Shown here in pieces: positions 3,137 to 56,516 of a stretch of DNA of 64,000 nucleotides. Made by a program: the position numbers and the translations under genes. Below the pieces are notes generated by a model that saw only the letters and a list, made by a program, of their open reading frames with translations, did no database searches and had not been told where the DNA came from. The stretch is from assembly GCA_965279035.1 (NCBI GenBank), contig OZ257142.1:2944001-3008000 (forward strand), written 5' to 3'. The stretch is from Bacteroidia bacterium. GTDB lineage: Bacteria; Bacteroidota; Bacteroidia; M30B66. How positions within the stretch are numbered: position 1 is the first letter of the stretch; every line of letters begins with the position of its first letter.

Positions 3137-3252
3137 GGGGCTGCCCCTTTTAATTTCATTTCGCACATGCCTGCCCAATTAAAACGGTCGGGCTTTACGT
3201 TGCAATTTTTTGTTCGTTCCTCTCAAAAAGATTTCCGCTGCAATCCCTCAGC
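3137..3252 (+). ncRNA. Flavo-1-like structured element
   Basis: GGGGCTGCCCC...GGTCGGGCTTT...CCGCTGCAATCCCTCAGC directly after a stop codon; same architecture as 41797-41855; family assignment from memory. Confidence 0.6.
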
Positions 3253-3312
3253 CGGCTTAGCGTAAATAATGGTCGAACATCCTATATTAGAGCAGTTATT
3301 TCCAACGATTTC

Positions 3313-7726: not shown

Positions 7727-8080
7727 TTAATCCAGCATGGACAAGCTTTTTTTTACAATGTCATAGCGCAAAACCAAATCAGCGACCATTTCCTTTAAGC
7801 GCTGATTTTCTTTGCGAAGCTCTGACACTTCATCACTCGTAGCTTCGCGGGTTACATCACCGGAGAGACGCTTCTTACCTGCTTCCAAAAACTCCTTATT
7901 CCATTTATAAAATTGACTCTCCTGTATAGAATACTTCCTACACAATTCTGCTACTGACAATTCAGCACGCAATGCCTCCATAACTATCTGGATCTTCTGT
8001 TCTGAACTGAAAATTCTTCTTGTCTTTCTGCGGATTTCTTTAATGTAATTCTCGGTCGTTTGTTTTTTCTTTGTTTCCAT
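7727..8080 (-). CDS. Transposase OrfA (HTH)
   Basis: FSSEQKIQIV...SVAELCRKYSI...FYKW; GTAAAAAAAAGC slippery motif near the end. Confidence 0.9.
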   Translation of the reverse strand: METKKKQTTENYIKEIRRKTRRIFSSEQKIQIVMEALRAELSVAELCRKYSIQESQFYKWNKEFLEAGKKRLSGDVTREATSDEVSELRKENQRLKEMVADLVLRYDIVKKSLSMLD

Positions 8081-8162: not shown

Positions 8163-11100
8163 AGTAATAGAAGACGGAGTAATGTTTACAGGAACTATAG
8201 TACTATTATTACCAATGCTTCCTCTACTGTTAAATGTGTTAGGACTAACATTCCAAGTCCCAAATGCCCAATTGGCATTACAATCAGTAAAATCTGAAGG
8301 AGGTATAATCCAACATGCATATGTGCGTGATTCGCTAACATAAGGTGGATAGATTGTTCCATAATCATTAGAGTTTGATAAAACAGTCCATCCAGAAGTT
8401 GATCCACTAGTAGTTGATTGATTTACCCCTTGTTTATAATACCATCTATATTGGTAACCTTGAAGGCAATTACTTTCAATATAATCGCCTGGGACGTTCT
8501 CAAATGAGATCGATGATGAAGTTGTACCTGAACAATATTCAATATTTCCATTCCCAATTGATCCATAATCAACAATTTTATAATTGAGTAAAGTATTATT
8601 TAAAATTTTGTATCTATCACAATCATACACCCAATAAGCGTATACTCTAGATTTGAATAATAATGGAGGGTCAATATTTCCAACAACTCCAGTACTAATC
8701 CAATTTGAAATATCAATATTTCTAAGATCTACTTCAATACAATTATTATTATCAATTTGATCAAAATCCAAATAGCGCCATTCGCCATTAAGCCCATTAT
8801 TATTTATATAAATTGGGGTTGGATCGTAAGAACCACAATAATAGCCTGTGTCTGACGAGAATGAACCTGGAGGAAATGAACTCCCTGTATTTGCCCCAAT
8901 ATCTAAATATGAAAAATTATTATTGGATATTCCATAAACAAGCGGCAAATAACCTTCACACCCAATCTGACCAATAGTAATATAACCATCAGATGCATAT
9001 AAATTATATAAATTAAAGTGCCCATTAGGACTTCTGTTAATATAACCAGTTCTATTAGAAACTAGATTATCAATAGTTCCATCTCCAAATTGAATATTAT
9101 AGTTATAATAGTAGGCAATTTGATTTATGTCTATTGGTAAATCAAATTGAAATGATCCTGAATTGGAGGGTTCATAGCCACAACTTGGATTTATTATTGG
9201 GTTTAGAATTGAAATTTGATTCCCACTGGCTTTTATCTTTATCGTATTTCCACACCATCCACTAGGTAAACAATTTTGTGCAACATTTCTGCTAACATAA
9301 CATGCATAGGTCCTATCAGAATTAAAAATAGTTGTTGTTGCGCCCGAAGTTGAATCTAAATCACCATTTAGTGGCAACCATCCTGTAACATCATTTCCAA
9401 AAGGAACATCTTCTATTATCCCCTCTTTATAATACCATTGTATATTTATATTTGGATTTGCTCCAATAACATCTTGAAGTAACAAAGAGATTGAAATATC
9501 ATCTTGACCACAATAATTATAAACTCCGTTTCTTAAAAAAATATAATCTGAAGCAGGACTTGTATATGTATCTAATACTGCAGTACCTAAACTGTAATTT
9601 TCATTTAAAGTAATATTAGATAAATTGGGATTTCCAGTAATTGCTGGATTTGAAGAAACAACCCTAATTCTGTAACTAGAACCAATTTGAGAAGAAATAG
9701 GTATATTCGAAATTATAGGACTGGTTAAACCAATTCCAATATATGTTGGATTAGCAAATGAACCTAATGGATCTGATAATTGAGCTACAAAAGAGTTTCC
9801 AGATTGAAAAATACTAGTTGTTGAAAAAGGTATAGATACTTGATCTCCTATACAAAAACTTCCCAATGCTAGATTTGAAGTTGTAATTGTAGGATAATTT
9901 GAAACAATTACTGAAATAGATGCTTTAGGACTTTCGCATACGCCAACTGTTTGACTTACAAAATATTGAGTATTGCCAGCTATTAAAGTAGATGGAATTG
10001 GAGCATTTGTTAATGAATTACCCCCAACTAATTCATTATACCATTTTAAATTAGTACCAGTAGCAGACAATTGTGTACTAGTGTTTCCTAAATAATAGTT
10101 TTGTGTTGAAACAACAACAGGTGCGCTTGGTGCCAGAGTAGCACTTACATTCACAGTAATTTGGGTTCTTGGGCTTTCTGGACAGCCAATGGCAGTTTGA
10201 GATACCCAATAATTAAAAACACCAGATGAAACTGTACTAGGTATAGGAGTTGTTGTTGAAGAATTTCCCCCGGTTGATGTTGTGTACCATAAAAGACCTG
10301 TCCCAGATACATTTAAAGGTGATGAAGGTGAATTTCTGCAATATGAAATTGGGGATACAGCTGATGGAGCAACAGGTTGAGCGTTTACAATAATTTGATA
10401 TCCAATCCTTGAACTTTCACATCCAAATTCACTTGTTTGCGAAAGATAATATGTTTGAAAACCAACATTTGAACTATTGGGGGTTGGTGGTGTAGGTAAA
10501 GCATTTCCTCCTGATGAATTTGTGTACCACTTGATATTAGTTCCAATTGCTGTAAGTGCAGATGTACTAGCTCCTTGGCATATGTATAATGGTGTAGTTA
10601 TTATTGGAGAACTAGGAATTGGTTGAATTCTAACAGTAATTAAACTTCTATTACTTTCTATATTATTTTCTGTTTGAGAAACATAATATGTATAATTACC
10701 CTCAATACTTGTATTGGGTAATGGTGCTGTTAATGAGAAATTCCCTCCATTTTCTGATGTATACCATTTTAAGTTAGATCCAGTTGCATTTAATGTTGAT
10801 GATAAACTATTTTTACATAAGTCTATTGGTGAATTTACTACAGGTGAAGGTGGAATTGCAATTATAGTTTTACTTTTAGCTGAACTTCCTGAGGAATTCG
10901 TTACTGTTAGAGTTATCGTATAAGTTCCTGAAGATGTAAAACTAATTGTTGGATTTATACTAGAAGAACTTGACCCTGATTGGTAATTCCATCCTGTTGA
11001 AGGAGAAATAGTCCATAATCTAGTACTCGGAGAATTAAAGGAGTTGTCACTTATATTAATAAGTGTCCCTTGAATAACAGACACCTGATCATTAACATTT

Positions 11101-11924
11101 CCATTAATTTTAAAATTGGCAATTGGTGCAATGGGCTGAACAATAATTGTTTTACTTAACGTACTATTACCAAGAGGATTTGTAACAGTTTGATTAATGG
11201 TATAAGTACCTGGTGTTGTAAACTGAATTTGAGGATTAATAGATGTTGTATTTGTTCCTCCAACAAAATTGTACGTATTACCAGATGCATTTGAAATTGA
11301 CCACTCAATAGTTTTTGCAAAATATTGAGTACTTCCAATATTAGTATATGATAAATTGACGGTAGCATTTTGATATACAGAAACAGTTGAATTATTGGAC
11401 CCATTAATTGAAAAAGAAGCCTGAGGAGCAGAAGGGTAGTTTACTTTTATATATTGTAATCTCGGCCCAGTTCTAGAAGTATTGCATGATTGAAAAGGAG
11501 GATTGTGAGTTGAAGAAATTGTTAATGAAAGATTATAAGTTCCAGGAACTTTATATCTTATTGTTTGTGGGGTGTTGTTTACAACTTCAACAAATGAATT
11601 TTGGGCTATTGAAGTAATTGGTGGGTCTGTATTAAATTGAGGAAACCATTCTTCAGTATATGTAGCATAAGCATTGTCACAAACTGGATTTGGTGTTCCT
11701 GAAAAGTTATACCAAGGATAAGAAGTATTTTTATAACAAGTTACTACTTGATTAATTGATAAGTTAACTTGAGGAGTTGTGCATGATATTGCAGGTACAA
11801 TCGGTCCAGATTCTAATGAACCAGTTATATATACAGGAATACTAGGGCTACATTGGGCATCTAATTTGTTAATCCTTAAACTAATAAAAGAAATAATAAG
11901 CAAAATTTGAGTTAGTAATTTCAT
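8163..11924 (-). pseudogene. Large secreted PKD/Ig-like repeat protein, C-terminally truncated by the IS
   Basis: Likely start MKLLTQ at 11924; PKD repeats (PGTYTI) and four ATG.NLKWY...YYVSQT Ig-like repeats; last codons and stop come from the IS end; no T9SS CTD left. Confidence 0.75.
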
Positions 11925-12015
11925 GGTAAAAGGGATTATTTTTATTTCTCGAGAAACAAAAATATACTTCAAACCATAATTAAAAAACTATCTCCACAGG
12001 TAGTAATTCGATAAC

Positions 12016-12756
12016 TTAAAGCCCTATGAAATTCTTACGCCCGAGTTTTTTAAGGATATTTTTCCTATGATAACGAACGCCAGATTCAGATATTAGTATT
12101 GATTTTGAAATTTGATTTATGCTTAGTCCTCGCTTAATTAAATCATATATTTCTTGTTCTTTTTCTGTAAACTTTAATAAATTATTCTTTATTAAATTTT
12201 CTGGTGCATGAATATACTTAACTTGGTCTCCATATGAAATAATGCAATCTATTGGATGATTTTCTTCAGAATCAATTAGTTGACTTAGAAACCCAAGATC
12301 AAACCATGTATTAGATTTATTACGAATTACTCTATTTGTTTGTAATACCCAAGTCCCTGATCCTGCATTATGTTTTAAGCGATAGTACATTCTTGTGATT
12401 ACTTTTTCTCTCTGAATTTCTGGTAATTTATTAACAAAATTTACTGTTTCATGTATTAGAAAAACTACCCTGTCTATATCTGAAATATGAATAAGATTTA
12501 GAAATACTTGAACCCCTCCTGTTAAAATATCATCTTTAGAAACTCCGAGGATTCTACAAATTGTATTACTCAAATAGGAATATGAACCATTTTGATAGTT
12601 ATAAATATATGCTCCATTGCCCATATTATCCATAAATTCTAATTGATTCTTATGCTCAATTAAAAATTCTTCAATATTCTTTGAATTGTAAATAAATTTA
12701 TTTAGACTCCTTTCTAAGGAATCAGAATTTATATTTGATTTATTTATTTTTTTCAT
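12016..12756 (-). CDS. PAS-domain LuxR-type transcriptional regulator
   Basis: PAS-like LIHISD...YYRLKH; C-terminal FTEKEQEI...GLS.NQIS...HRKNILKKLG. Confidence 0.85.
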   Translation of the reverse strand: MKKINKSNINSDSLERSLNKFIYNSKNIEEFLIEHKNQLEFMDNMGNGAYIYNYQNGSYSYLSNTICRILGVSKDDILTGGVQVFLNLIHISDIDRVVFLIHETVNFVNKLPEIQREKVITRMYYRLKHNAGSGTWVLQTNRVIRNKSNTWFDLGFLSQLIDSEENHPIDCIISYGDQVKYIHAPENLIKNNLLKFTEKEQEIYDLIKRGLSINQISKSILISESGVRYHRKNILKKLGRKNFIGL

Positions 12757-12857
12757 ATGAAATCATAACATATTACAAATGTGATTCAAAAACAAATATA
12801 ATAATCCTTTTTAATCCAAAAGATAAATTATTCTATATTAAACGTATTTTATAGCCT

Positions 12858-12979
12858 AATGTTCAGCATACACCTAAAGAGCCGAACGATACTAACAGAA
12901 TGCTTTAGATTAGACGAATAAAACAAAAATACTAAGCATCAAACTCCAGAAATGCTTAGATTTGTTCGTGTGTGCTGTT
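12858..12979 (-). repeat. attC-like cassette repeat R1 (most diverged)
   Basis: Shares core AATGCTTTAGATTAGACGAATA...CAAACTCC.GAAATGC and terminal inverted arms with R2-R7. Confidence 0.8.
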
Positions 12980-12994
12980 GTGCGACGTTATGTT

Positions 12995-13414
12995 TCAAAG
13001 TATATATCCAGGAATCAAACTGTCAATAACTGCATTTTTTGTTTGTAAAAAGAATATCTCACTTTCTGATTTAACCGTGTACCAATCTTCGGTTCCATAA
13101 TTTTCAAGTCTGAACTTCCTGTGTATTTCGTTTTTTAATGATAACGTTTTATCTCGACTTATAGCGGCTTCTTCATACTTACCTTGGTTTGCAAGTGATT
13201 CTATCTCACGGTTTGTGTCTTCCACATTCCATTCAGGAAATTTATTGGCTGTAAATGATGCCAATGTTTCTTCATAATTTACTTCATAAGAAAATCTAAA
13301 TCCGGCTTTTGAACAAAAATTAATAATCCCTGCCAATTGACTAATGCTCATATTTGCATTCTCTTTGGATAAGTTTCTTATTATTTCATTTAATTGTTTA
13401 GTCGAATTAATCAT
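12995..13414 (-). CDS. Hypothetical cassette protein with UVR-like motif
   Basis: Likely start MINSTK (the track's longer start lies inside repeat R2); ANQGKYEEAAISRDK resembles the uvrB/uvrC motif. Confidence 0.6.
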   Translation of the reverse strand: MINSTKQLNEIIRNLSKENANMSISQLAGIINFCSKAGFRFSYEVNYEETLASFTANKFPEWNVEDTNREIESLANQGKYEEAAISRDKTLSLKNEIHRKFRLENYGTEDWYTVKSESEIFFLQTKNAVIDSLIPGYIL

Positions 13415-13439
13415 TGTTTGCTTTTTTATAATGTACCAT

Positions 13440-13563
13440 AACGTTTCACACACACCTGCAGAGCCAAACTTGGTGAATGAAATGCTTTAGATTAGACGAA
13501 TATAACAAGAAAAACGAATGTATCAAACCTACGAAATGCATCGCTTTGCTGGTGAGTGCTGTT
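13440..13563 (-). repeat. attC-like cassette repeat R2
   Basis: AACGTTTCACACACACCTGCAGAGCC...GCTGGTGAGTGCTGTT, 124 bp. Confidence 0.88.
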
Positions 13564-13695
13564 ACAAGATGGTAGCATTAATGGTAATTGTAAATTTGTG
13601 AATCGAAATGTGTTTTATTTGACAATCAAATTCTAAGATTGCTTTCAATATAAAGTGAATCAAAATAAAATCGAAAAAGAGATTTACTAATAAAT

Positions 13696-14936
13696 TGTAG
13701 GCTCCCCATTTTTAGTACGGTTCTAAATTACAATTTATTATCATTGATTAACTCTTCTTGGCTGGAGTGAAGCGTAGCGGAACGGAGGCCAAGAAGAGTC
13801 TGATTTTTACGTTTATACATCACTGGACTTAAGCCACCCAAAGCATCATGTGGCCTTTCTTCATTGTAGTCTTGCATCCATGTTTCAGTGATGCTTCTTA
13901 CCTCATAGAGAGATTCAAAAATATAATTATCAAGGATTCCTCCTCTAAAGGTTTTATTAAATCTTTCTATCAATGCATTTTGTGTTGGCTTTCCAGGCTG
14001 TATGTAATGAAAGTCTATTTCTTTTATTTCACTCCATTCTTTCGAAAGCTTGGCGATAAATTCAGGTCCGTTATCCATTCGTATTTTTTTAGGTTTTCCA
14101 TGTTTATTGATTAGGTGGTTTAGCACCCAGATTACTCTGCTACTTTTTAATGAATAATCTGTTTCGATAAATAATACCTCACGATTGTAATCATCTATAA
14201 CATTAAAGGATCTGAACTTGCGACCATTGCTGAGAACGTCATGTACAAAATCAATACTCCAAGTATGGTTAAATTCACTTGGTATTACGATTTGTTCTTT
14301 TACTCTTGCTGGCAAACGCTTTTTTGCCTTGCGTCTTAATGGTAGACCCATTTGCTTATAAACCCTGTGGAGGCGTTTGTGGTTTACTTTGACACTCTTG
14401 TTGCGTAAACGATAATAACTCTTCCAAAAGCCTTCTCTGGGGTGTTCAATGCTTAGTTTACTTAAAGCATCATTTAAAAACGAATCATCCTTTTGGGAAC
14501 GATAGTTTAAACTACTCCTGCTTGTTTGTAAAATACGACACGCCTTGCTTATGCCATGAGGATAATGATGCTTGAGCTCTTCTACAATCGCTCTTTTGTG
14601 GCAAGGCTTTAAAGCTTTTTTTCGATTATATACTTTGCCATATCTAGCTCTAAAGCTAAATCTGTATACATGCGCTTTAACTTTGCATTTTCCTCTTCTA
14701 GCCGTTTTATATTCTTCAACTCACTAGCCTCCATGCCACCGTATCGTTGTCGCCACTTGTAAAAAGTAGCCTTCGATACTCCATGCTCTCTGCTAATTGT
14801 TTCAACATCTTTTCCTTGTTCAAACTCTTTAAGGATCTTTGCAATCTGCGTCGGGGTGAATCTTGTCTTTCTCATATTACAGTTTTAAAATTAGAAATTC
14901 TTTTTTCAAACTGTACTATTTTCGGGGGAGCTTACA
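13696..14936 (-). mobile_element. IS3 family element (IS407-like, 1241 bp)
   Basis: TIRs TGTAGGCTCCCC / GGGGAGCTTACA; 4-bp target duplication AAAT. Confidence 0.93.
13728..14875 (-). CDS. IS3 transposase OrfAB (programmed -1 frameshift)
   Basis: OrfA 14609-14875; GAAAAAAAG slippery site; -1 frame runs into [20 protein letters not shown]. Confidence 0.9.
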
Positions 14937-15480
14937 AAATCATTAAAACCAATATAAGTAAAAATCTAATATTGAACTTTTTCAATATTACATTGATTAT
15001 ATTTATAAGTTGTTTATATTAAAATTTGATTAGAGTTGTTGATTAACGTTATTTAGTGCAGCAAATGATCCAATTAATTCTTCGTTTTGATATCTGTCAT
15101 ATTTACTTGCACTCTTAATTATGGATACCTTAATTATAATTGAAAAAATTGAGTAAATAACCCATAAGACTGGATTTGTAATAAAAACATCACCAACGAG
15201 ACCTAAGCATAGGTCAAGATATATTATATCAAAAGAGAATGTTGCGAATAGAATTGAATCAAAGGCTATCGACATTGACCAGTATTTTTTTAGGAAAGAT
15301 AAAGAATATCCATAGTTTAAATCTTGCCTTAAATGCGACCATAAGTATGCCAACAGAGGATAAACATTTATTTGTGTAACTGGGTAATAATTTGAAAGTA
15401 TAATGTGATTATTTAAATTATGTATTTCCAACAATGTATTAAACTCATTAAAATTATTATGAGTGCTATATAGTTTGAAT

Positions 15481-16851
15481 CACACCCGTCCAAGACGTTT
15501 GTATAACGAAAATACAATCCTGATTTGATGCGAGATTACTCATCAAAGAACGCTCTTTTGAAAATTAAACCCTCTATAATTTAAAAAAGGGACATTTGTA
15601 ATTCCAGTTTATCAATTTCGTCATCATCTAAAAAGGGTTTATCAAGCCATTTTTTGAGGTCAATTTTCACAAAGAGATTTAATCGAATAAAGGACACCAA
15701 ATTTGAGAGGTGCCAAGAGTGTTTTGCTTCCTTTTGAAGTGTCTTTAAAAGCAGTATGGTGATTAGTGCTGTCCAAATCTGTATCAGAACAGCATTCATG
15801 CTGGTTCCTATGAAAGACTTGATTTTCAGGTGTGTTTTGATCTCCTTGAAGAACGATTCGATGCTCCATCTACGTTTATATAGTTCTGAAATGGTCGATG
15901 CTGTCCAAGAAAAATTGTTTGTAAGAAGTTCAAGATATATCTGTTGTTCTTCATCCCAGATCTGAACCATTCGGAGCTTTTGCGGGTATTTTTCTTTTGA
16001 TTGAGGTAAACTCAAAAAGCCTTTCCAGTCGTATTGCAAGTCTGGATTTGCTTCATCGGTTGGGCTCTTAGTTCGCTCATAAAGTTCAAACTGAATGTTT
16101 TCTTTTCCTCGAATAACAAAGAATACTCCTTGTTCATCTAATTTTCTCATCCAGTTAAAATCGACATATCCTCTATCAGCTACAACAATGCTTCCTGTGG
16201 GAAATTCAATATCATGTGCTGCATTTACATCGTGCTTTTTGCCATCACTCAAATCAGCAAAAACGGGCATACAGCCGTCAAAGTCAAGGACTGTGTGAAG
16301 TTTTATAGCTCCCTTCTTCTTTCGAAATAGTGCCCAGTCGAACACTTTAAGACAAAGGTCAATCGTGGTTGAATCGAGCAGATAGATTTTACGTTTGGGA
16401 AGCAGCTTTCGGCTTGTTTTTAAGGTTGATTCAAACTGCTCATACAAGTTAAAATACATCGCTTGAAACAGCTCCCAGTTGCGATGTTGGTTATTATATG
16501 CCAACGATGATCGCCTCATGGCTTTTGACACTCCCAGATGATTTAAATCGCCTGTTGCTGATCGCATTCCATTGCAAACGTCATTTAAGCTATTAGACTT
16601 GGAAAACTGGCAAAAAACCATTGTCACAAAGTGAGACCAAGCATCATTGCCTTTACAATGTTTATTGGACTCAAACTTTTCTACTAGTTTATTGAAAGAA
16701 TCTCGCTTAATTTTTTGGAATATCTGAGCAAATAATGTGATCTTCATGCCGGAGTTGGTTTATGTTTTTGTGTCGTAACTCAAACATACCGGATTTAATC
16801 CGGACCAACTCTATTTTTTTACCCTATTTTAAAACGTCTTGGACGGGTGTG
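15481..16851 (-). mobile_element. IS4 family element (1371 bp)
   Basis: Perfect 20-bp TIR CACACCCGTCCAAGACGTTT; 9-bp target duplication AGTTTGAAT. Confidence 0.95.
15581..16747 (-). CDS. IS4 family DDE transposase
   Basis: LLDSTTI, VADRGY, YKRRWSIESFFK (YREK) motifs. Confidence 0.95.
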   Translation of the reverse strand: MKITLFAQIFQKIKRDSFNKLVEKFESNKHCKGNDAWSHFVTMVFCQFSKSNSLNDVCNGMRSATGDLNHLGVSKAMRRSSLAYNNQHRNWELFQAMYFNLYEQFESTLKTSRKLLPKRKIYLLDSTTIDLCLKVFDWALFRKKKGAIKLHTVLDFDGCMPVFADLSDGKKHDVNAAHDIEFPTGSIVVADRGYVDFNWMRKLDEQGVFFVIRGKENIQFELYERTKSPTDEANPDLQYDWKGFLSLPQSKEKYPQKLRMVQIWDEEQQIYLELLTNNFSWTASTISELYKRRWSIESFFKEIKTHLKIKSFIGTSMNAVLIQIWTALITILLLKTLQKEAKHSWHLSNLVSFIRLNLFVKIDLKKWLDKPFLDDDEIDKLELQMSLF

Positions 16852-17245
16852 AGTTTGAATATATTAAATCTAGTAATCAATCTTCTTAAATTTCGACCAC
16901 ATGAGAAACAAATTATACCAATCAAATAACCAATTACAATGTGCACTAGTATCAAGGAATTATTAAAGAAATTAATAGAGAAGAGATTTCCATTTTGGAA
17001 ATACCAAAAGTATATGCCTGAAATAACAGCAATTCCTGCAAGTAAAATTGATAAATCTAAAATTTCAAAAAAATCAGCAACTTTTGAAAATATTATTTTA
17101 AGTATTGAAGTGAAATCGTTCATGATTATATTTAAAGGTTTTAAACTTAGTTTATGTAGTTTTAAAAATCTAAATTAAGTTAATTATTTCAATTGAGTAT
17201 TAATGCAAATGCTTATTGAAAAGACTAAAAGAGCCACTTTCTTGT

Positions 17246-17369
17246 TATGTTCCGCACACACCTGAAGAGCCAAACGAGGTGAACGAAATGCTTTAGATTA
17301 GACGAATATAACAAGAAAAACCGATGCCTCAAACTCCCGAAATGCCTGGTTTTTCTAATGTGTGCTATT
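17246..17369 (-). repeat. attC-like cassette repeat R3 (terminal triplets mutated)
   Basis: TATGTTCCGCACACACCTGAAGAGCC...ATGTGTGCTATT, 124 bp. Confidence 0.88.
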
Positions 17370-17456
17370 ACCAGCTAATCCGTTTTGTACTTAAAGAAAT
17401 AGTCATTGAATTATTTGATTTCAGGAAATTCTTTGTTTATGAATAACCGAGACATT

Positions 17457-18152
17457 TCATTCAATTTCAATTACGATTCCGCCAAAATGGCGTTCTGCAG
17501 CTTTGCATGGAATTCCATTTACATAACAAATGTTACTACTATATTCTCTTTCAACATTTTTGTATTTCCCTTTCAAGCCTTGCCCGAACATGCCATCATT
17601 AAAAAACTCAATTGGTTTTCCATTTTCATCTGTTGTTTTGTCTATACAGTCTTTACAGATTTGTTTTGGATATCGATGGCTAAACCCAGTTTTGTTTAGA
17701 CAAATTGGGCATAATTGATATTCATGATTTTCACTGATTAAATATTCATGAAGCAACATTTCCAAATTCTTTGAAACATTAGCCTGTGAATATTTTCCAG
17801 TTTCCTTCCAAACTTTGTCATTTTCAAGATTCAATACTTTGTAACATCTTTCTAGAACCGACTTATGATGGAATAAATACCAATTATCGCCATTGGGAAA
17901 AGCAACATATAAATTTTCGCTGTTACTATATTTTATATTTAGAGTAAACCTTGATTTTAATTGTACTTTGTAGGTGACGTCATCATATTTTCTATTTATC
18001 ATCAAAAAATCCGCACCATTCCAATCGTCATTTAATCGAATAGTTTCCAAGCCATAATCAGCTAGAATGCCTGAAAGTTTTTGGAAATTAAAGGATTCTT
18101 TCTGTTTTGGGCTAAGATCCTCGTATTCAATCTTTTTAAAATGCAGTTTCAT
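17457..18152 (-). CDS. Hypothetical cassette protein; PD-(D/E)XK-like N-terminus plus Cys-rich C-terminal domain
   Basis: GADF...KVQLKSR; CPIC...CKDC. Confidence 0.55.
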   Translation of the reverse strand: MKLHFKKIEYEDLSPKQKESFNFQKLSGILADYGLETIRLNDDWNGADFLMINRKYDDVTYKVQLKSRFTLNIKYSNSENLYVAFPNGDNWYLFHHKSVLERCYKVLNLENDKVWKETGKYSQANVSKNLEMLLHEYLISENHEYQLCPICLNKTGFSHRYPKQICKDCIDKTTDENGKPIEFFNDGMFGQGLKGKYKNVEREYSSNICYVNGIPCKAAERHFGGIVIEIE

Positions 18153-18278
18153 GTGTTTTAAGTTTGTTGTATGCTTATTAAATGTAAAAATAAACCATTT
18201 GCGTTTTTCAAACTCATCATGGTTACTCGCAGTAAAAAACGAATATGCTTAAGTCGACCGAGATCGCGGCTTTGCTGG

Positions 18279-18402
18279 AACGTTCCGCACACACCTGAAG
18301 AGCCAAATGAGATGAACGGAATGCTTTAGATTAGACGAATATAACAAGAAAAACGGATGCCTCAAACTCCCGAAATGCTTGGCTTTGCAGGTGTGTGCTG
18401 TT
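18279..18402 (-). repeat. attC-like cassette repeat R4 (best preserved)
   Basis: Arms GCACACACCTGAAGAGCCAA (18287-18306) and TTGGCTTTGCAGGTGTGTGC (18379-18398) complementary 18/20; AAC and GTT ends. Confidence 0.9.
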
Positions 18403-18439
18403 AGTGGTAGTTTACTATTTCGTTACTTGTAATATCGGT

Positions 18440-18862
18440 CTACTTCAATGCAAATTTAAATGGTAATGTCCACTCGGAACTAATGGTTCTTCTCTTATTG
18501 TCTTTAATTTCTATAGCTGGATTCCATTTAGGCATAATTGAAACAATTCTTAATGCTTCGTTGTCATATGGAGGACATATTCCTTTCAGAATTTTAGGGT
18601 TATTTATTTTTCCGGTTGTGTCTATTCTAAATGTTATAAATACAGTTCCATGCTCACAACCATCTGCGATAGGCCATTTAATATTACGTCTAATAAAAGC
18701 TATTAAGCTGTCTTCACCACATGGAAAACTTGGTGCTGGATTACTTATTAAAATAGTTTTTGTCGAATCAAGTAATTTGTCTTGCCTAGTCGCTTGAGCA
18801 TGACAAAGTGTCTGCAAACTTGAAAGCAAAATAAATGTCTGTATGATGATTGTCTGTTTCAT
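18440..18862 (-). CDS. TonB C-terminal domain protein (cassette gene)
   Basis: Likely start MKQTII; PSFP.G, GTVFITFRIDTTG, EALRIVSIMPKWNPA. Confidence 0.85.
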   Translation of the reverse strand: MKQTIIIQTFILLSSLQTLCHAQATRQDKLLDSTKTILISNPAPSFPCGEDSLIAFIRRNIKWPIADGCEHGTVFITFRIDTTGKINNPKILKGICPPYDNEALRIVSIMPKWNPAIEIKDNKRRTISSEWTLPFKFALK

Positions 18863-18929
18863 TAAATTACCACTAACCTTTAGACTTGCAGTCAAAGATT
18901 TTAGCTGATAAATTTACCATAAATAAATG

Positions 18930-19085
18930 TAGTTAACCGAAAGCAGGGCGACCTATGCGCTAACAAGGATAATAGGCCTATGGAACGATATAGTGCCCTA
19001 CTTTCTGGTTATTTAAGCCTCAGATAGATATTCGGGATTCAGGCCCATTATAAAGGTTTTGAGGTACAAATAACCATTGGTTAAT
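18930..19085 (+). ncRNA. Predicted IS110 bridge RNA
   Basis: Two stem-loops with internal loops: CGCTAAC and GGAACG match the target; ATAGATAT and TAAAGG match the donor junction; ends approximate. Confidence 0.7.
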
Positions 19086-19107
19086 CCGTTTTGCTAATTA
19101 TAAAATT

Positions 19108-20121
19108 ATGAATTCAAACCAGAACAACCAAAAACATTTTGTAGGAACAGATGTTTCAAAAGAAACACTTGATGTAACGATCTTTTTCAACTCCTCAATG
19201 CATTTTCATCAGCAATTTTCAAATGACAGCAAGGGCTTTAAGCAATTGCTGAAATGGCTAGAAACCTATCCTGAATTCAGTTTTGAAAATACTTTATTCT
19301 GCATGGAACATACAGGAATTTACACTCGTCAGTTTGTTGAATTCCTCCTTTCGAAAGAAGCAAAGGTATGGATGGAGTCGGCACTGCATTTAAAGCGTTC
19401 TATGGGCATGACAAGGGGCAAAAGTGATAAGATCGATTCACTGCGAATTGCACGCTATGCAATGACTCATCAGGACCAAGCCAGGCTCGTAAATCTTTCC
19501 AATAAAACATTGTTGCTTATCAAAGACCTTATGAGTGCAAGAGAGCGGAGTAAAAAGGCCTACCAGTCCATAAAAGTCTCCATTGATGAAATGCAAAGAG
19601 TCGATGCAGCAACAGCAAAAGAGCTCTTGAGGATTAATAAACCAGCCCTTTCTGGATTATTGAAAAGCAAGATGGCGTTGGAAAAACGGATGATGGAATT
19701 AATAGCGATGGATCCTGAACTGAACGAGCTATTTGAGCTGGTTACTTCTGTCAAAGGTGTGGGTAATGTATTGGCAACCGAACTGATTGTTTATACACAT
19801 GCATTTAAAAGAATGGATGAAGCCAAACAACTGGCCTGCTATTGCGGAGTCGCTCCTTTTTCTCATACTTCCGGCACGAGTGTGCATGGAAGAAATGGAA
19901 CTTCAAACTTTGCTAACATGGGACTTAAATCAACTTTACACTTGGCTGCACTTTCTTCAATTCGTTACGTACCTGAGCTTAAAACATATTATCAGAGGAA
20001 AGTAGCTGAGGGAAAATCCAAAATGAGCGTAATTAATGCCGTGCGGAATAAACTGTTGCAACGTGTCTTAGCAGTGGTAAAAAGAGGAACGCCTTACCAA
20101 GAAAATTATCAAGTAAATTAA
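19108..20121 (+). CDS. IS110 family recombinase (DEDD)
   Basis: VGTDVSK, CMEHTG, KSDKIDS, SVKGVG, YCGVAP...SGTS. Confidence 0.95.
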   Translation: MNSNQNNQKHFVGTDVSKETLDVTIFFNSSMHFHQQFSNDSKGFKQLLKWLETYPEFSFENTLFCMEHTGIYTRQFVEFLLSKEAKVWMESALHLKRSMGMTRGKSDKIDSLRIARYAMTHQDQARLVNLSNKTLLLIKDLMSARERSKKAYQSIKVSIDEMQRVDAATAKELLRINKPALSGLLKSKMALEKRMMELIAMDPELNELFELVTSVKGVGNVLATELIVYTHAFKRMDEAKQLACYCGVAPFSHTSGTSVHGRNGTSNFANMGLKSTLHLAALSSIRYVPELKTYYQRKVAEGKSKMSVINAVRNKLLQRVLAVVKRGTPYQENYQVN

Positions 20122-20142
20122 TTTGGAAAACTCATAGATATC

Positions 20143-20261
20143 GTTCCGCACACACCTGAAGAGCCAAACGAGGTGAACGAAATGCTTTAGATTAGATGAA
20201 TATAACAAGAAAAACGAATGCTTCAAACTCCCGAAATGCTTGGCTTTGCTAGTATGCCGTT
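20143..20261 (-). repeat. attC-like cassette repeat R5 (its AAC displaced to 18875-18877 by IS110)
   Basis: GTTCCGCACACACCTGAAGAGCC...GTATGCCGTT. Confidence 0.88.
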
Positions 20262-20889
20262 AGCGGTTGCTATCGTCCCAAAAGCCAATATCAATTAGAA
20301 CCCTACTTTCAAACTCAAATTGAGTTAACTTAATTTTATCTACCGTCAATTCTTTACGAATAGGATCGTAATACATTCCTTTAATTCCAACTTTACATGC
20401 TAAAAATTGATCAGCTAAAAAATCACCTACTTTTGTATTTCCTCCATTAATATCTTCTGAAGCAAAATATCCGTTTGGCCCGCAAGTCAAAATAAAGTTT
20501 CCATTCTTTGCATATTTATCCATTTTCTTTTTTTGAACAATTAACCCACTGTTATTTCCTACTTTCTTAGCCTGGAAAATAATGGATTTCGTGGTTTTAA
20601 TATTTGTGTCTTTATCCTCAATATCTAAGGATATAATAGAGTCCGCTCCAATTCGTTTTTCTTCAGCGCCTGGTCCTCTGCCTTGAAATTTCTTATAGTA
20701 AATTATCCAATAATAAGTTTTGCTGTCAATTTTCATAGTTTTCTTTTCTGACCTAAGATTTCCTAAATAATCTCCAACTACTGAATCTTCTTCTGCATTT
20801 GAATAATCCCATCCCTTTTCGCCTCTTCTCGAACGTTTCTTTATGTGATTTTTTATAATGTCTAATAATTCTTGTGGAAGTTCATGCAT
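20260..20889 (-). CDS. Hypothetical cassette protein, possible PD-(D/E)XK nuclease fold
   Basis: EKRIGAD...IIFQAKK; stop codon TAA lies in the CTAAC end of the repeat, as is common in integron cassettes. Confidence 0.6.
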   Translation of the reverse strand: MHELPQELLDIIKNHIKKRSRRGEKGWDYSNAEEDSVVGDYLGNLRSEKKTMKIDSKTYYWIIYYKKFQGRGPGAEEKRIGADSIISLDIEDKDTNIKTTKSIIFQAKKVGNNSGLIVQKKKMDKYAKNGNFILTCGPNGYFASEDINGGNTKVGDFLADQFLACKVGIKGMYYDPIRKELTVDKIKLTQFEFESRVLIDIGFWDDSNR

Positions 20890-20918
20890 AAGATAATGAT
20901 TTTAAAATGGTTACCGTT

Positions 20919-21042
20919 AACGTTCCGCACACACCTGAAGAGCCAAATGAGATGAACGGAATGATTTAGATTAGACGAATATAACAAGAAAAACGGATGC
21001 CTCAAACTCCAGAAATGCATGGCTTTGCTGGTATGTGCTGTT
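20919..21042 (-). repeat. attC-like cassette repeat R6
   Basis: AACGTTCCGCACACACCTGAAGAGCC...GGTATGTGCTGTT, 124 bp. Confidence 0.9.
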
Positions 21043-21105
21043 ATTCTGTGGAGCGCTTAATCGAAAAGATAATCGAACTTTACTACAAACTAATTAAAAA
21101 GAAAC

Positions 21106-22551
21106 CTAATCAGTATTCCAAAGCCATTCAGGATGATCTTTAGTCATTTCTCTAAGTTCATCTCGCCCAAACTCTTCTGCAGATTTCCAATAATTATTTA
21201 GATTATTATTTTTTTCTCTTAACTTTTCTTGATCAATTTCTTTGCACACGCGATCTCTATATTCAAGATATTTATTACCATATTTAATAAAAAGTGAACT
21301 TTGGCTAGATATTATATCCATAGTCATTTGAGAAATATCAAAATCGAAATTATTATCATTAATTGTCAAATCCCATAGTCTGTTTCCAAGCATACGATGA
21401 ATATTGCATTCATCTTCATAAAACAAATCAGATGTTACAGTATTATCAATTAATCTCATCTGATATTTTAAAAACTTCAGAAGGAAAATTGGATGCAATT
21501 GGCCAATTGAGTATAATTCACAAAAATTAGCAGTAAAAGGTGTTACTGGACTAAAACCTCGAATAAAATGAATAAATTCAAATTCTTGATAAATACTAAA
21601 TAATTGGTCATCAATTATATCATTTCCAAAAATATTTTTACAACCATATTTTTGCGGATTATCGTTTGTCAAATAATAATAATTACCATTCAATAAAGAA
21701 GTTAAGCCAGATAATGTATTTTCTAAAAGTGGTTTGTTATTCTGATCAATAAAATTCCACCTCAATTCATATCTATAATATTTAGTAGCATTTGAAGTAT
21801 TTCTTCTATAATTACTTATTGCAACAGCTGCATAACCTTCTGAAAAAGATCTGGCGTCATCATAAATTGCAGGAATTACAAATTGTCCGGTCTTATTAAT
21901 AAATCCAAATAACCCATTAATTTTCACTTTAGCTAATCCATTTATATGTGAACAAGCATATTCAAATTGCTGATTTATGACAAAATCTTGTAACTTATTA
22001 TTTTTGAAACTCTCTTCTGAAATATATCCCCATAATTTATTAAAGTGTTTTACTCCAACTAATTGATCTATTGGTAATGTAATATCTTCAACAAATGAAA
22101 ATGAATATTCTTCGTTCGTTAAATTTAAAATGAGAATACCTGATGAAATATCTTTGTAGGATTCAAAATAGGTACTGTATTTCTTAAAATCATTACTTAA
22201 TAAATTGAACAACATATTAGGATTCACTGAAACAATTATCATTTCATTGAAAAAGTAATTTTTCAGAAAAAACTTATTTTGAGGAACTATAGTTTTGAAA
22301 ATTGTCTTAAAAAAACTCCATTCTTTTTGATTATCTTCTCTAAAAATGGATGATCGACCTTCTCTATCGATGATATTCCAACCTTCTGAAGTATATACAA
22401 ATGCATGTTCAAAATTCAGAGGCTTCGCATATCTATAATATCCTATATCATCGTCCTCAATTTTATAAAAATATGGCTCATCTTCATTATGTTTAGTATG
22501 AGTCAATATTGGACCAATCAATTTACTTTGAGTTTCATTCATAAAAATCAA
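21106..22551 (-). CDS. WG repeat-containing protein (cassette gene)
   Basis: LWGYI, GLAKVKINGLFGFINKTGQFVIP, FSEGYAAV, WNFID. Confidence 0.8.
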   Translation of the reverse strand: MIFMNETQSKLIGPILTHTKHNEDEPYFYKIEDDDIGYYRYAKPLNFEHAFVYTSEGWNIIDREGRSSIFREDNQKEWSFFKTIFKTIVPQNKFFLKNYFFNEMIIVSVNPNMLFNLLSNDFKKYSTYFESYKDISSGILILNLTNEEYSFSFVEDITLPIDQLVGVKHFNKLWGYISEESFKNNKLQDFVINQQFEYACSHINGLAKVKINGLFGFINKTGQFVIPAIYDDARSFSEGYAAVAISNYRRNTSNATKYYRYELRWNFIDQNNKPLLENTLSGLTSLLNGNYYYLTNDNPQKYGCKNIFGNDIIDDQLFSIYQEFEFIHFIRGFSPVTPFTANFCELYSIGQLHPIFLLKFLKYQMRLIDNTVTSDLFYEDECNIHRMLGNRLWDLTINDNNFDFDISQMTMDIISSQSSLFIKYGNKYLEYRDRVCKEIDQEKLREKNNNLNNYWKSAEEFGRDELREMTKDHPEWLWNTD

Positions 22552-22790
22552 TACAGTATTGATAGTTTAAAGTGAATTATCATATAATCGTGACGCATCG
22601 AGCATAACTCTCAAATAAAAGAAGTGATATTTCGCTAAATTAAGATAATCGAGGATAAACGCGAAATTGATAAAATTGAAATTACTGCATCAAGACAATC
22701 TCATCAAGTCCGCTTCAAGAAGAACAAAATTAGCAATGTTAATATGGATAATCAGTTCACCAAGTAATCGAGTGGTTAATTAAATTGAAA

Positions 22791-23111
22791 TCACCCATCA
22801 AAAATTAACCTTCCCTTTCCCCTCCTCTTTCTCTTCTGCTCTTCGCTATAATACCAAATTAGAAAAGCTGTCGTACCTAGAACGATTATTCCTCCAATTA
22901 TCCAATATCCCCATTTTATCTTGTTATCAGAACCAACAACCTCAACAGACTTATTTGTTGAAAATTCCATGTGTTTAGCTCCAGAAACATTGGGGGTATT
23001 TCCAAAGGAATTTGGAGCAGAAGTGCTCACTTTAAAGTCTGCAATCTTGGTTGCACCTCCAGTTGGGGCATAAAAATCAAAAATATTCGCAGGTTTCATT
23101 TTCATCATCAT
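22791..23111 (-). CDS. Hypothetical island protein with C-terminal transmembrane helix
   Basis: WGYWIIGGIIVLGTTAFLIWYY followed by basic tail; overlaps the upstream stop. Confidence 0.6.
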   Translation of the reverse strand: MMMKMKPANIFDFYAPTGGATKIADFKVSTSAPNSFGNTPNVSGAKHMEFSTNKSVEVVGSDNKIKWGYWIIGGIIVLGTTAFLIWYYSEEQKRKRRGKGRLIFDG

Positions 23112-23485
23112 TCATCGTGTTTGAATTCTATGAGCTTGACTTCAGTCTTTGATTGCAGCAGTATACCAATGTTACCATACCTAAACATTATAGTTCCTTT
23201 CTCATTAATCGTATACATGTAACCTGCTATAAAATCGAATCCCAGTTTAAGTAATTCTTCTTCCTTAATTCTCACCATTTTCCTATTCCATAAATATTCT
23301 AGGATTTGAATGTTCTTGTTTCTTGCCTTGAGCATTTTGACTTCCCACGCATAATTAGCCATCCGATAATTATACGCTGCTTGATTTTTACAATGCGGAC
23401 AACAGAATCGTTTCTTGGGGTTCTTTCCATCGAACGGTTTACCGCACACTTCATTTGCACACTTTTTTGAAATCATTGCTGCCAT
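23108..23485 (-). CDS. Hypothetical island protein with N-terminal zinc ribbon
   Basis: CANEVC...KRFCCPHCK. Confidence 0.65.
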   Translation of the reverse strand: MAAMISKKCANEVCGKPFDGKNPKKRFCCPHCKNQAAYNYRMANYAWEVKMLKARNKNIQILEYLWNRKMVRIKEEELLKLGFDFIAGYMYTINEKGTIMFRYGNIGILLQSKTEVKLIEFKHDE

Positions 23486-23486
23486 G

Positions 23487-23774
23487 TTAGAATTGGATTT
23501 TATTCTTAATCAGAAACTCATTGATGCTATTGCGTGAGTACAATATTTTTCTTCCGAATTGGGTGAACTTGATCTCACCATTGTCCCGAATCTTCTGCCA
23601 TGAGGTTTTGGACTTGAACGGAAGCAATTTCTTAGCCTCTGAAAGTGGAATCCAGTCACTCTGATAGCTTTGGGCCTTTTCAATTAGCAATTCTGCCACT
23701 GCCTCTTTCACATAACCTTTAATCTCTCGTTTCAGAGCTTCAAATACTGCTGAATCGAATGTGATTAATTCCAT
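23487..23774 (-). CDS. Excisionase-like HTH DNA-binding protein
   Basis: DWIPLSEAKKLL...WQKIRDNGEIKFTQFGRKILY, typical Bacteroidota HTH_17 protein next to an att site. Confidence 0.85.
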   Translation of the reverse strand: MELITFDSAVFEALKREIKGYVKEAVAELLIEKAQSYQSDWIPLSEAKKLLPFKSKTSWQKIRDNGEIKFTQFGRKILYSRNSINEFLIKNKIQF

Positions 23775-24421: not shown

Positions 24422-24426
24422 CGTAG

Positions 24427-24500
24427 TAGCGGGGACGGGAGTTGAACCCGTGACCTCAGGGTTATGAATCCTGCGCTCTAACCATCTGAGCTACCCCGCC
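24427..24500 (-). tRNA. tRNA-Met (CAT), probably elongator
   Basis: GGCGGGGTAGCTCAGATGGTTAGAGCGCAGGATTCATAACCCTGAGGTCACGGGTTCAACTCCCGTCCCCGCTA cloverleaf; TATATTTG -7 box at 24512-24519. Confidence 0.95.
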
Positions 24501-24894: not shown

Positions 24895-25794
24895 TCACTG
24901 TGAAATCACCACCTTACCAGTCTCCATTTTCCCGTCAACCCAAGCACGATAGATATAAACACCAGACACAAGTGAACTCGCTGGTAACTCCACTTTACCA
25001 TCGTTGGCTTTAATAATATGCGTTCGCAATCCGGCAGTAGAATAGAGTTCAACCCAGTGTAAATTTTTCGCTTGAAAAGAGAGATTATTCATTCCATATT
25101 GAAACGAGAAGTCGCTCAAGTCTTTGGATTCTTCGATTCCAGTTATGGAGCAATTCCCTTGATAAAGCGTATCACCATTTAGTACAAAACTGGTTAAACC
25201 ATAGCCGCATTCTGGACAACCATTCCTACAAATAGGAGAACGAAAACCGGAACTTGGCCCCACACCTTCAATGAAATAATAAGCTAATGGGTAATTCGAC
25301 ATGCTAATCATCCAACGCTTTCGTCCAATTGAGCCAATACACACTGTATCATGATTCAATAGTGAAACTCCTCCAGAAAGTCCACAACTAGGAAACGGTG
25401 TTGCATTTTCTATGGCTGTACTATCTATTAAGTCGAAATTGTAGAGCAGGTATTCTTGCTCAGCACTTCGTTGAATAAATTGCTTATTGTATTCCCGAAT
25501 TAAAATGGATAATTCATCAGTCAAATTGGTATCTGTTACTTGTTCACCATTACCCATGTTATCATAAACTGTATGTGTATAATAACAAAGGCTTTGTAAG
25601 TTAATTTTAAAGTAATTGGTATCATTAATCACCGAATCTCCAGCGATGTAATAAACATCATTACAAGAAGTATGTGCATCAAAGCCCGACCAAGTATAGA
25701 CTTGATTCCAGCGCGCCGTTTCATTTAAGTAGGATTGAGCCTTAACAGAAGCGAACGAAAGGCAAATAAACAAAATGAGCAGTTTGTGTTTCAT
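24895..25794 (-). CDS. Secreted protein with T9SS C-terminal domain
   Basis: Signal peptide; FIEGVG; SGVYIYR...KVVI CTD. Confidence 0.75.
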   Translation of the reverse strand: MKHKLLILFICLSFASVKAQSYLNETARWNQVYTWSGFDAHTSCNDVYYIAGDSVINDTNYFKINLQSLCYYTHTVYDNMGNGEQVTDTNLTDELSILIREYNKQFIQRSAEQEYLLYNFDLIDSTAIENATPFPSCGLSGGVSLLNHDTVCIGSIGRKRWMISMSNYPLAYYFIEGVGPSSGFRSPICRNGCPECGYGLTSFVLNGDTLYQGNCSITGIEESKDLSDFSFQYGMNNLSFQAKNLHWVELYSTAGLRTHIIKANDGKVELPASSLVSGVYIYRAWVDGKMETGKVVISQ

Positions 25795-38225: not shown

Positions 38226-38345
38226 AACAGCACACACCATCAAAGCCAAGCATTTCGGGAGTTTGAGGTATTCGTTTTACTTGTTATTTTCGTCTAATCT
38301 AAAGCATTCCATTCACCTCATTTGGCTATTATAGTGTGGAATGAC
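38226..38345 (+). repeat. attC-like repeat R7, solo and opposite in orientation to the array
   Basis: AACAGCACACACC...CATTTCGGGAGTTTGAGG...CGTCTAATCTAAAGCATT...TTTGGC is the reverse complement of R1-R6; distal end degenerate. Confidence 0.85.
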
Positions 38346-56235: not shown

Positions 56236-56246
56236 GACAAAAAAAT

Positions 56247-56342
56247 GGGTAAGTTACTTATATCGCACCGCTCAACCACCTACCCTTGCTACCTTCCGGT
56301 CCTGGGGGATTTCAGCAGGAGCTGGTCGTACAAGACTTACCC
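56247..56342 (-). ncRNA. ffs: Signal recognition particle RNA (4.5S)
   Basis: Minus strand CAGGACCGGAAGGTAGCA domain IV; terminal GGGTAAGT/ACTTACCC stem; TATTTTTG -7 box at 56347-56354. Confidence 0.92.
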
Positions 56343-56516
56343 GCCGCAAAAATAGGAAAATGAACGTATGAAAGTTTGATATCGCTCTATTTTTTTGAAA
56401 GCGCCTATTATTCAAGTATTTATATTAAGCAGCTAATTAAGCAGTGCAAGAATCAAATGGAAAGGAAGGAATTTCGCATGCTGAAACTGTTATATTTGCC
56501 CCTAAATCAAATTAAA

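Follow-up and report, generated by a model that had tools for sequence, protein, structure and literature searches.

Repeats in a Bacteroidota genome as probable attC-like sites of an integron-like gene-cassette system, and a candidate XerA/IntI-like recombinase beside similar arrays in relatives

Introduction

Can an array of hairpin-type repeats and single genes that has no integrase nearby be the product of integron-like cassette capture, and, if so, which enzyme would have built it? The question is raised by a 64,000-nucleotide stretch of DNA from Bacteroidia bacterium (assembly GCA_965279035.1, contig OZ257142.1, positions 2,944,001 to 3,008,000; hereafter the window), in which a first-pass annotation had seen an integron-like gene-cassette array built on ~124-bp attC-like repeats and lacking a local integrase. 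Here, we follow these repeats through the window, metagenome contigs, genomes and plasmids, and conclude, with a probability of roughly 0.8, that they are attC-like recombination sites and belong to a gene-cassette system of integron type that is native to Bacteroidota.

Sedentary chromosomal integrons combine the integrase IntI, an attI site and arrays of attC sites, as in Vibrio cholerae with its ~120-nt repeats, and to our knowledge integrons are considered nearly absent from Bacteroidota. The IntegronFinder 2.0 survey of complete genomes records one complete integron (Salinibacter) in Bacteroidetes proper and, earlier, only In0 elements (PMC9024848); integron reviews, in the portions available, list Bacteroidota only at phylum level. 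A search of full texts, with subscription journals and supplementary tables outside its scope, did not turn up any account of Flavobacteriales or Bacteroidota cassette arrays associated with a Xer-like recombinase, and the system described below is apparently both widespread in Bacteroidota and undescribed.

Results

Flanks of neighbouring repeats pair across the genes between them

Repeat finding and alignment located six co-oriented copies of a ~124-nt repeat on the minus strand of the window, which is also the gene orientation used below (Table 1). All six had been listed in the first-pass annotation; five of its start positions stood and the other, 20143, was corrected to 20142. A 23-nt core of the repeat has seven matches in the window at three mismatches or fewer, compared to none in each of 100 shuffles. 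The seventh copy that had been counted earlier thus exists, but lies outside the range given for the array, on the plus strand and with a decayed 3' end. The consensus in gene orientation is (Y)TAAC-A-[~20-nt arm]-~70 nt-[arm]-GGAAC-GTT(A), and the AAC-hairpin-GTT layout with arms of about 20 nt that had been proposed can be read in each copy. Mutated end triplets had also been noted, and we find AAT/ATA in the copy at 17246, ATT at 12858 and GAT at 20142, the last being the product of the insertion of an IS110-family insertion sequence (IS) at the crossover point. The stop codon of the open reading frame (ORF) at 20260–20889 is, as described, the TAA within the CTAAC of site 2.

A pattern scan of metagenome contigs revealed 94 stretches with the repeat, and nhmmer searches yielded 230 matches in 85 of 99 sources (the window, L001–L004 and L020–L099) in a first round and 27 more in L100–L113 in a second. 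Arrays have up to 11 copies, always co-oriented within a contig and with the preceding gene. Integron logic predicts that the bases just beyond GTT, being part of the following cassette, are complementary to those preceding AAC in the site that this cassette carries. We compared the 6 nt after the GTT of each repeat with the 6 nt before the AAC of the following one, and among 113 such pairs, drawn from the window and from metagenome contigs, found 6/6 complementarity in 90, 5/6 in 14 and less in nine (mean 5.60), versus means of 2.90/6 for the two flanks of the same repeat (n = 138) and 2.88/6 for 20,000 random pairings. Within the window, ACCGCT matches the complement of AACGGT at 5/6, TCTTGT pairs with ACAAGA at 6/6, GCTGGT with CCAGC at 6/6 with a 1-nt deletion, and ACCACT with AGTGGT at 6/6 once the IS110 element (about 18878–20141) is recognised between them, while the last pair reaches 3/6. 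After removal of IS110, four of the five pairs are thus perfect or off by a single base or indel. The cassette with a TonB_C-domain ORF begins at GTTAGTGGT (18877–18869), the perfect complement of the site 3 flank ACCACT.

This complementarity between neighbours defines each inter-repeat segment as a discrete cassette and puts the crossover within the conserved GTT or next to it, a pattern that we take to rule out explanations by transposon-like movement or by RNA alone. Each site in an array is therefore a chimera of two cassettes, as in integrons. Moreover, the same cassettes occur in different contexts. By sequence, the 147 internal cassettes form 117 clusters (median body 805 nt, interquartile range 651–1113 nt), several of which recur beside different neighbours. 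One cluster appears three times in array L069 and in four other arrays, its neighbours differing; arrays L083 and L092, otherwise collinear, differ by one cassette replacement; and the 152-aa cassette of the window has 87–88% nucleotide identity to its L083 and L092 copies, again with different neighbours. The integron-type cassette grammar claimed from the window alone thus extends well beyond it, and we saw neither the gene order fixed across relatives nor the behaviour of miniature inverted-repeat transposable elements (MITEs) or repetitive extragenic palindromes (REPs) that had been named as contrary outcomes. Cassettes in the loci examined include genes for TIR, STAND-NTPase, toxin-antitoxin and secreted proteins. 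Among them, a TIR-domain protein (L051, 3356–4063) and a 937-aa STAND/NB-ARC NTPase with TPR repeats (L031, 198–3011) occupy cassette positions and recall the anti-phage defence cassettes reportedly found in Vibrio integrons.

The sites share a covarying stem and an asymmetric spacer

Family 1, to which the window repeats belong, comprises 132 unique full copies in which conservation is 90% or higher at almost all positions from AAC through GTTA. Folded singly as DNA, the window copies improve only modestly on shuffles (z −2.8 to +1.2), with bottom-strand folds slightly more stable than top-strand ones, so the structural case rests on comparative data and not on folding energies. Such data came from other site families, which surfaced when the starts of 'first' cassettes were traced, and which have unrelated arm sequences but the same layout, AAC-1 nt-20-bp stem-loop-stem-5 nt-GTT. 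The 54 unique sites near recombinase genes (see below) have 42 distinct 5' arms, with the 5' spacer being A in 52, the 3' spacers mostly 5-mers of the NNAAC or AAACC type, the total length 124 nt in 31, and stem position 14 an A opposite a C in 53. The 1-nt versus 5-nt asymmetry remarked upon in the window copies is therefore real and is kept across unrelated site families.

In a gapless alignment of 25 sites, three of them from the window, columns A1, A2, C3, A4, A18, C103, A119, C121, G122, T123 and T124 are invariant, and 19 of the 20 stem pairs change on both sides. Covariation was 0.725, compared to 0.174 for shuffled sites (reached in 0 of 500 shuffles) and 0.07–0.11 with slid partners, and the column pair 18·103 is unpaired in 25/25 sites. 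Because most sites had been picked by arm complementarity, the search was redone with end motifs only (YAACA ... NNAMC-GTTR), the one search free of stem-based selection. Downstream of recombinase genes and co-oriented with them, it returned 77 candidates, 51 of which have at least 13/20 complementary arm positions (mode 17), whereas the 19 candidates elsewhere have at most 9/20. In-register complementarity was 16.7/20, versus 5.3–6.5 in slid registers.

Canonical attC sites comprise an R box, a variable terminal structure, roughly symmetric unpaired spacers of ~5 nt and an L box whose extrahelical bases orient the site. Compared to that fold, the R box, a long covarying stem and a loop are all present here, but the spacer is 1 by 5 nt, the arms are equal in length, and an invariant A·C stands in place of bulges. 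Read from the complementary (bottom) strand, the A·C is a G·T wobble, and this position may mark strand or orientation, as extrahelical bases do in canonical attC.

A XerA/IntI-like recombinase precedes arrays in relatives

The first-pass annotation had envisaged a distinct cassette system driven by a tyrosine recombinase encoded elsewhere or deleted, and a candidate family indeed lies beside arrays of such sites in relatives. A scan of a genome collection yielded 571 relatives of this recombinase; locus counts below refer to the best 80 with flanks, in which sites were counted with a structural scanner. Downstream of the recombinase gene and co-oriented with it, there are 61 sites in 248 kb, compared to one on the opposite strand of the same 248 kb and 1 + 3 on the two strands in 621 kb upstream. 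Where at least 1 kb of downstream sequence is available, 30 of 48 loci have a site. In 28 of the 32 loci with sites we could locate the first-cassette junction, which in 22 lies 70–113 nt after the gene, in the context of a small hairpin followed by a conserved ...ATATA[A/T]ACAA that ends at the GTT. This junction would be the equivalent of attI, placed after the stop codon of the recombinase. Many draft contigs break 0.1–1 kb past the recombinase gene, as would be the case with repeats downstream. The genes on either side of the recombinase are not conserved among 12 loci, and this comparison is non-discriminating.

The arrangement can be read in a metagenome-assembled genome (MAG), G002, on whose contig C4 the sequence GTTAACTGC, 105 nt past the recombinase stop codon, is the exact partner of the left flank of the first site. 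Four heterogeneous sites with four different stems follow the junction and obey cassette logic. The recombinase is ~347 aa long with Pfam domains SAM_4 and Phage_integrase, and has an N-terminal extension of ~75 aa; across the proteins, 75–200 N-terminal residues lie outside the NF040815 ('recomb_XerA_Arch') model, which is passed marginally at 227.5 and 221.1 bits (cut-off 220). On the integron integrase model TIGR02249 (cut-off 265), scores are 204–227 bits in two pieces that skip model positions ~180–238. Among solved structures, the XerA proteins 4a8e and 5hxy are closest to the recombinase. In the alignment to VchIntIA (2a3v), only 19 residues (255–273) lie opposite chain residues 186–246, with both sides aligned, and the IntI-specific insertion is therefore absent. 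Failure of the IntI family test fits the distinct system that had been proposed. Public annotation calls such proteins 'site-specific tyrosine recombinase/integron integrase' or XerD, and a classification of tyrosine recombinases describes the IntI insertion as 'not fully conserved' in an integron-like subgroup.

In four MAGs (G001–G004, G002 among them), just one family-1 copy apiece follows a co-oriented gene, and several of the 'single' family-1 copies proved to adjoin sites of other families. None of the four has a TIGR02249 match above the 265-bit cut-off, two having unusually strong split matches, and these genomes also carry separate Xer paralogues of ~300 aa. We connect the window to the recombinase because its sites share an identical architecture and cassette logic with the linked arrays, because arrays L002 and L003 mix family-1 sites with those of other families, and because G002 has both a family-1 site and a recombinase-linked array, on different contigs. 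On these grounds, the linked recombinase family may also act on the window's own sites.

Another candidate enzyme was the CTnDOT-type integrase that precedes array L051. Among 54 of its relatives with flanks, only L114 and L118 have a convincing downstream site, and we have treated it as the integrase of a neighbouring mobile element. Regions upstream of arrays L031 and L039 contain no integrase. A 475-aa relative of the linked recombinase with an N-terminal extension of ~200 aa is encoded at 8021–9442 of L169 (contig C17 of G001), 1 kb from the contig end, with no site in its short downstream stretch. Separately, a protein 53% identical to recombinase residues 99–347, for which annotation says no more than tyrosine-type recombinase, is encoded on plasmids of Klebsiella michiganensis, K. 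pneumoniae and Aeromonas veronii.

Arrays occur in cultured strains and on a plasmid

Among cultured strains, we identified arrays in Flavobacterium saccharophilum DSM 1811 and F. limicola DSM 15094 (seven sites each), F. palustre (three sites) and F. psychrophilum DSM 3660 (two sites). In plasmid NZ_CP041688.1 of Chryseobacterium sp. SNU WT5 (locus 9001–17081), the recombinase gene is followed by the attI-like junction ~100 nt past its stop codon and then by co-oriented small genes (Crp/Fnr, RidA, metallophosphoesterase, GLPGLI), with an IS110 transposase and a group II intron reverse transcriptase both antisense. The same plasmid has a duplicated 38-nt unit resembling a mini-cassette, GTTGGGAAA...TTTCCCAAC. 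Family-1 repeat DNA had no match in the plasmid collection.

The window holds a decaying, IS-invaded array

No tyrosine recombinase was found in the window by Pfam scans of 40 ORFs, nor did phmmer with three recombinase queries match any window ORF of at least 80 aa, in agreement with the local absence of an integrase reported earlier. Together with its mutated triplets and three IS insertions, which mark it as decaying, the window array is a recombinase-less, IS-invaded member of the system akin to a cluster of attC sites lacking integrases (CALIN). The description of single co-oriented genes alternating with repeats applies to it except in two intervals, one of which contains the plus-strand IS110 and the other an IS4-like element, IS3-type remnants and a 134-aa ORF. 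IS110, antisense to the cassettes, separates ...GGAACG from GTTAGTGGT and occupies the precise AAC/GTT crossover point of site 2.

Table 1. Positions of repeats, cassettes and other features in the window. Numbering starts at the first letter of the 64,000-nt stretch.
Feature	Position	Strand	Remarks
attC-like site 1 (family 1)	20919..21042	-	AAC and GTT intact; 15/20 arm complementarity by generic structural scan
attC-like site 2	20142..20261	-	5' arm with 2-nt deletion; 3' crossover point split by IS110
attC-like site 3	18279..18402	-	Best-preserved copy; arm complementarity 18/20
attC-like site 4	17246..17369	-	Both end triplets mutated, AAT / ATA
attC-like site 5	13440..13563	-	AAC/GTT intact; arm complementarity 14/20
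attC-like site 6	12858..12979	-	Last of the array and most diverged; ATT replaces GTT
Solo seventh copy	38226..38343	+	3' end decayed; between convergent genes
Cassette ORF, 209 aa	20260..20889	-	No Pfam family
Cassette with TonB_C-domain ORF	18440..18877	-	Probable ATG 18862
Cassette ORF, 231 aa	17457..18152	-	No credible Pfam family
Cassette ORF, 152 aa	12995..13453	-	Recurs in metagenome arrays L083 and L092
Large interval, sites 4-5	13564..17245	-	IS4-like element, 134-aa ORF, IS3-type orfA/orfB
IS4-like element (DDE_Tnp_1 + DUF4372)	15468-16864		33-nt inverted repeats; transposase 15581-16747; Pfam
134-aa ORF	15030-15434		Between sites 4 and 5
IS3-type orfA/orfB remnants	14609-14875, 13728-14351		Pfam
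IS110-family insertion sequence	18878..20141	+	Transposase ORF 19108-20121; Pfam DEDD_Tnp_IS110, Transposase_20
WG_beta_rep ORF, upstream of site 1	21106..22551	-	First-cassette status uncertain
tRNA-Met	24426..24500	-	Borders low-GC island (about 6-24 kb) holding the array

Public sequencing runs X19–X22 cover 0.95–0.96 of the array, and many wastewater and sludge metagenomes ~0.2 (Logan contigs). In X19 and X22, the unitig spanning 18900–20155, with IS110 and 14 nt of the site 3' end, has ~11 times the depth of neighbouring cassettes, a figure for depth and not copy number; it hints that most IS110 copies may sit at the same position of such sites, like IS1111-attC elements in integrons. In the same runs, the IS4-like element reaches ~14 times the baseline contig depth and appears highly multi-copy in that organism, and the IS3-like stretch (13510–14936) ~1.7 times. 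Joints in run contigs on the array all lie at repeat ends, with sides of 22–34 nt (one of 113 nt), and are indistinguishable from multi-mapping; cover in X19 and X22 is absent over 12800–13460, which proves nothing.

The array stretch has a GC content of 0.30–0.34 compared to 0.38–0.41. We could identify no attI in the window and no convincing first-cassette start for the WG_beta_rep ORF, the lone candidate, GTTATGCTC at ~22606, fitting four of the six expected flank bases. Between the array and tRNA-Met (22791–23774) are three small co-oriented ORFs, one with an excisionase-like HTH_17 domain, that look like the remnant of an integrative element without its integrase. For the flanking gene at 24895–25794, the genome collection offers a single relative, which lies on a 3-kb contig, and an empty-site comparison between strains failed; the MAG of that relative (G005) has diverged repeat copies and only a generic 297-aa Xer match. 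Elsewhere in the window, Rfam detected a Flavo-1 RNA (3182–3261) and a Bacteroidales small signal recognition particle RNA (56243–56349), and many proteins have the Por_Secre_tail domain of the type IX secretion system; jointly, these features assign the window to Bacteroidota/Flavobacteriales.

Discussion

The attC-like sites proposed here would operate as follows. A cassette would run from a GTT flank through one or more genes to the flank and AAC of its own site. In the folded ~124-nt site, N5-Y-AAC would pair with GTT-R-N5 to form a 9–10-bp R box, followed by an asymmetric internal loop with 1 nt on one side and 5 nt on the other, a 20-bp stem of free sequence but preserved pairing with an A·C mismatch at position 14, and a closing loop of ~70 nt; crossover would take place at the conserved GTT, within it or beside it. 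We propose as the probable enzyme a XerA/IntI-like tyrosine recombinase of ~347 aa without the IntI-specific insertion, encoded upstream of the array and co-oriented with it, which would direct cassettes into an attI-like site ~100 nt past its own stop codon. That a folded single strand is recombined, which strand is used and the exact bond cleaved are points that we infer from the site architecture and flanks, and arrays of this kind may be active today.

Much of this is shared with sedentary integrons. In both, co-oriented and mostly single-gene cassettes, of about 0.5–1.2 kb, each end in an imperfect-palindrome site; AAC...GTT ends have cassette-specific flanks that pair across the cassette; stems are set by structure and not sequence, with sites homogeneous within a lineage; the insertion point, as seen in relatives, adjoins the recombinase gene; sedentary and plasmid forms exist; and antisense IS110-family and group II intron elements occur in arrays. 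Unlike in sedentary integrons, however, the recombinase scores below the IntI family cut-off, lacks the IntI insertion and has an extra N-terminal region, and it is co-oriented with the cassettes, with attI past its stop codon instead of upstream of a divergent gene. The sites in turn depart from canonical attC in the 1-nt by 5-nt spacer and in an invariant A·C where extrahelical bases are expected. IS1111-attC elements and group IIC-attC introns are parasites of integron attC sites, and the antisense IS110 at the AAC/GTT core of site 2 and the antisense IS110 and intron reverse transcriptase of the Chryseobacterium plasmid resemble them, although, compared to IS1111-attC, the target specificity of IS110 is only hinted at by the 14 nt of site 3' end in a multi-copy unitig.

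Could the window array simply be an ordinary integron remnant, a CALIN whose canonical attC sites are served by a true IntI elsewhere in the genome? Its six sites, decayed triplets and IS invasion, with no recombinase within 64 kb, are those of a CALIN, its cassettes follow the very grammar of integrons, the linked recombinase does score 204–227 bits on TIGR02249, and In0 elements (IntI without recognised attC) are reported in Bacteroidetes (PMC9024848). But CALINs are defined by IntegronFinder's attC model and the window sites are non-canonical, 52 of 54 sites having the 1-nt by 5-nt geometry; the four MAGs with the repeat have no TIGR02249 match over the cut-off; and the array-linked recombinase, without the ~40-residue IntI insertion and with the XerA-type NF040815 as its best family, is co-oriented with the cassettes and has attI past its stop codon. 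We regard this explanation as improbable, and equally so one in which the sites would be recombined as duplex DNA, like Xer/dif modules, with the inverted arms as two protein-binding half-sites. Single-stranded phage DNA in folded form is a known Xer substrate, and plasmid modules flanked by dif, such as those bounded by Xer sites on Acinetobacter plasmids, offer a precedent for the duplex alternative; the linked recombinase resembles XerA and XerCD in its best family and structure matches, the archaeal XerA 4a8e and 5hxy, and in the length of its catalytic domain. Half-site recognition, however, would predict conserved arm sequences, whereas stems vary freely within one array (four in G002 contig C4, and 42 distinct arms in 54 sites) with pairing kept despite that variation, the invariant A·C suits a folded strand, and ~124-nt hairpin-type sites in long arrays are unlike the 28-bp dif-like duplex sites of XerCD.

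Least probable, and to our mind very remote, is that the repeats are MITEs, REPs or RNA elements of 3' untranslated regions (terminators or small RNAs) without any role in cassettes. The solo copy does lie intergenically between convergent genes, four MAGs have a single family-1 copy after a co-oriented gene, and one-sided C-to-T changes in the 5' arm retain G·U pairing on the sense strand. Yet several of those 'single' copies actually adjoin sites of other families, target-site duplications are absent and it is instead the flanks of neighbours that are inverse complements, a repeat's own flanks are no more related than random pairs, Rfam at gathering thresholds has no match in the array, and the sites are tightly linked in position to a recombinase and a conserved junction.

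Several observations do weigh against attC-like sites served by the linked recombinase. Alignment of 11 family-1 copies gave no compensatory pairs, this family being too conserved to yield covariation; most sites in the 25-site alignment were chosen by arm complementarity, which makes the percentage paired there circular. By the scanner, 18 of the 48 loci with sufficient downstream sequence show no site, and family-1 sites, the window's type, directly adjoin the recombinase in none of the 80 loci, while array L051 and its relative L114 are preceded by a SAM_5/CTnDOT-type integrase. Contigs mapped on the array offer no usable evidence of excision or circles, and the 64-kb window contains no recombinase, which leaves the enzyme's presence in this organism and any activity of its array conjectural.

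Going beyond a native cassette system, we lean, by a narrower balance, towards a more specific joint reading, namely that of a second integron lineage: a Bacteroidota-wide cassette-capture platform with a XerA/IntI-like enzyme that lost the IntI insertion or never had it, sites with a 1-by-5 loop and an invariant A·C or G·T position, and its own site-targeting IS110 and group II intron parasites, which would occur in Flavobacterium, on Chryseobacterium plasmids, in Algoriphagus, Chitinophagales and others, and be abundant in wastewater and freshwater metagenomes. Its different recombinase and differently built folded site would have kept it invisible to integron-finding software. If the arrays are what they seem, a major bacterial phylum, found in soil and water and associated with the gut and with fish, would possess a cassette-capture system of its own, whose cassettes would number in the hundreds and are as yet unexplored, and surveys of integrons in Bacteroidota and the annotation of mobile elements would need a new site model and recombinase profile. 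The site and recombinase would provide a new pair for genetic tools. Moreover, integron-style recombination of structured sites would require no IntI-specific domain, which would bear on how integrons evolved from Xer-like enzymes.

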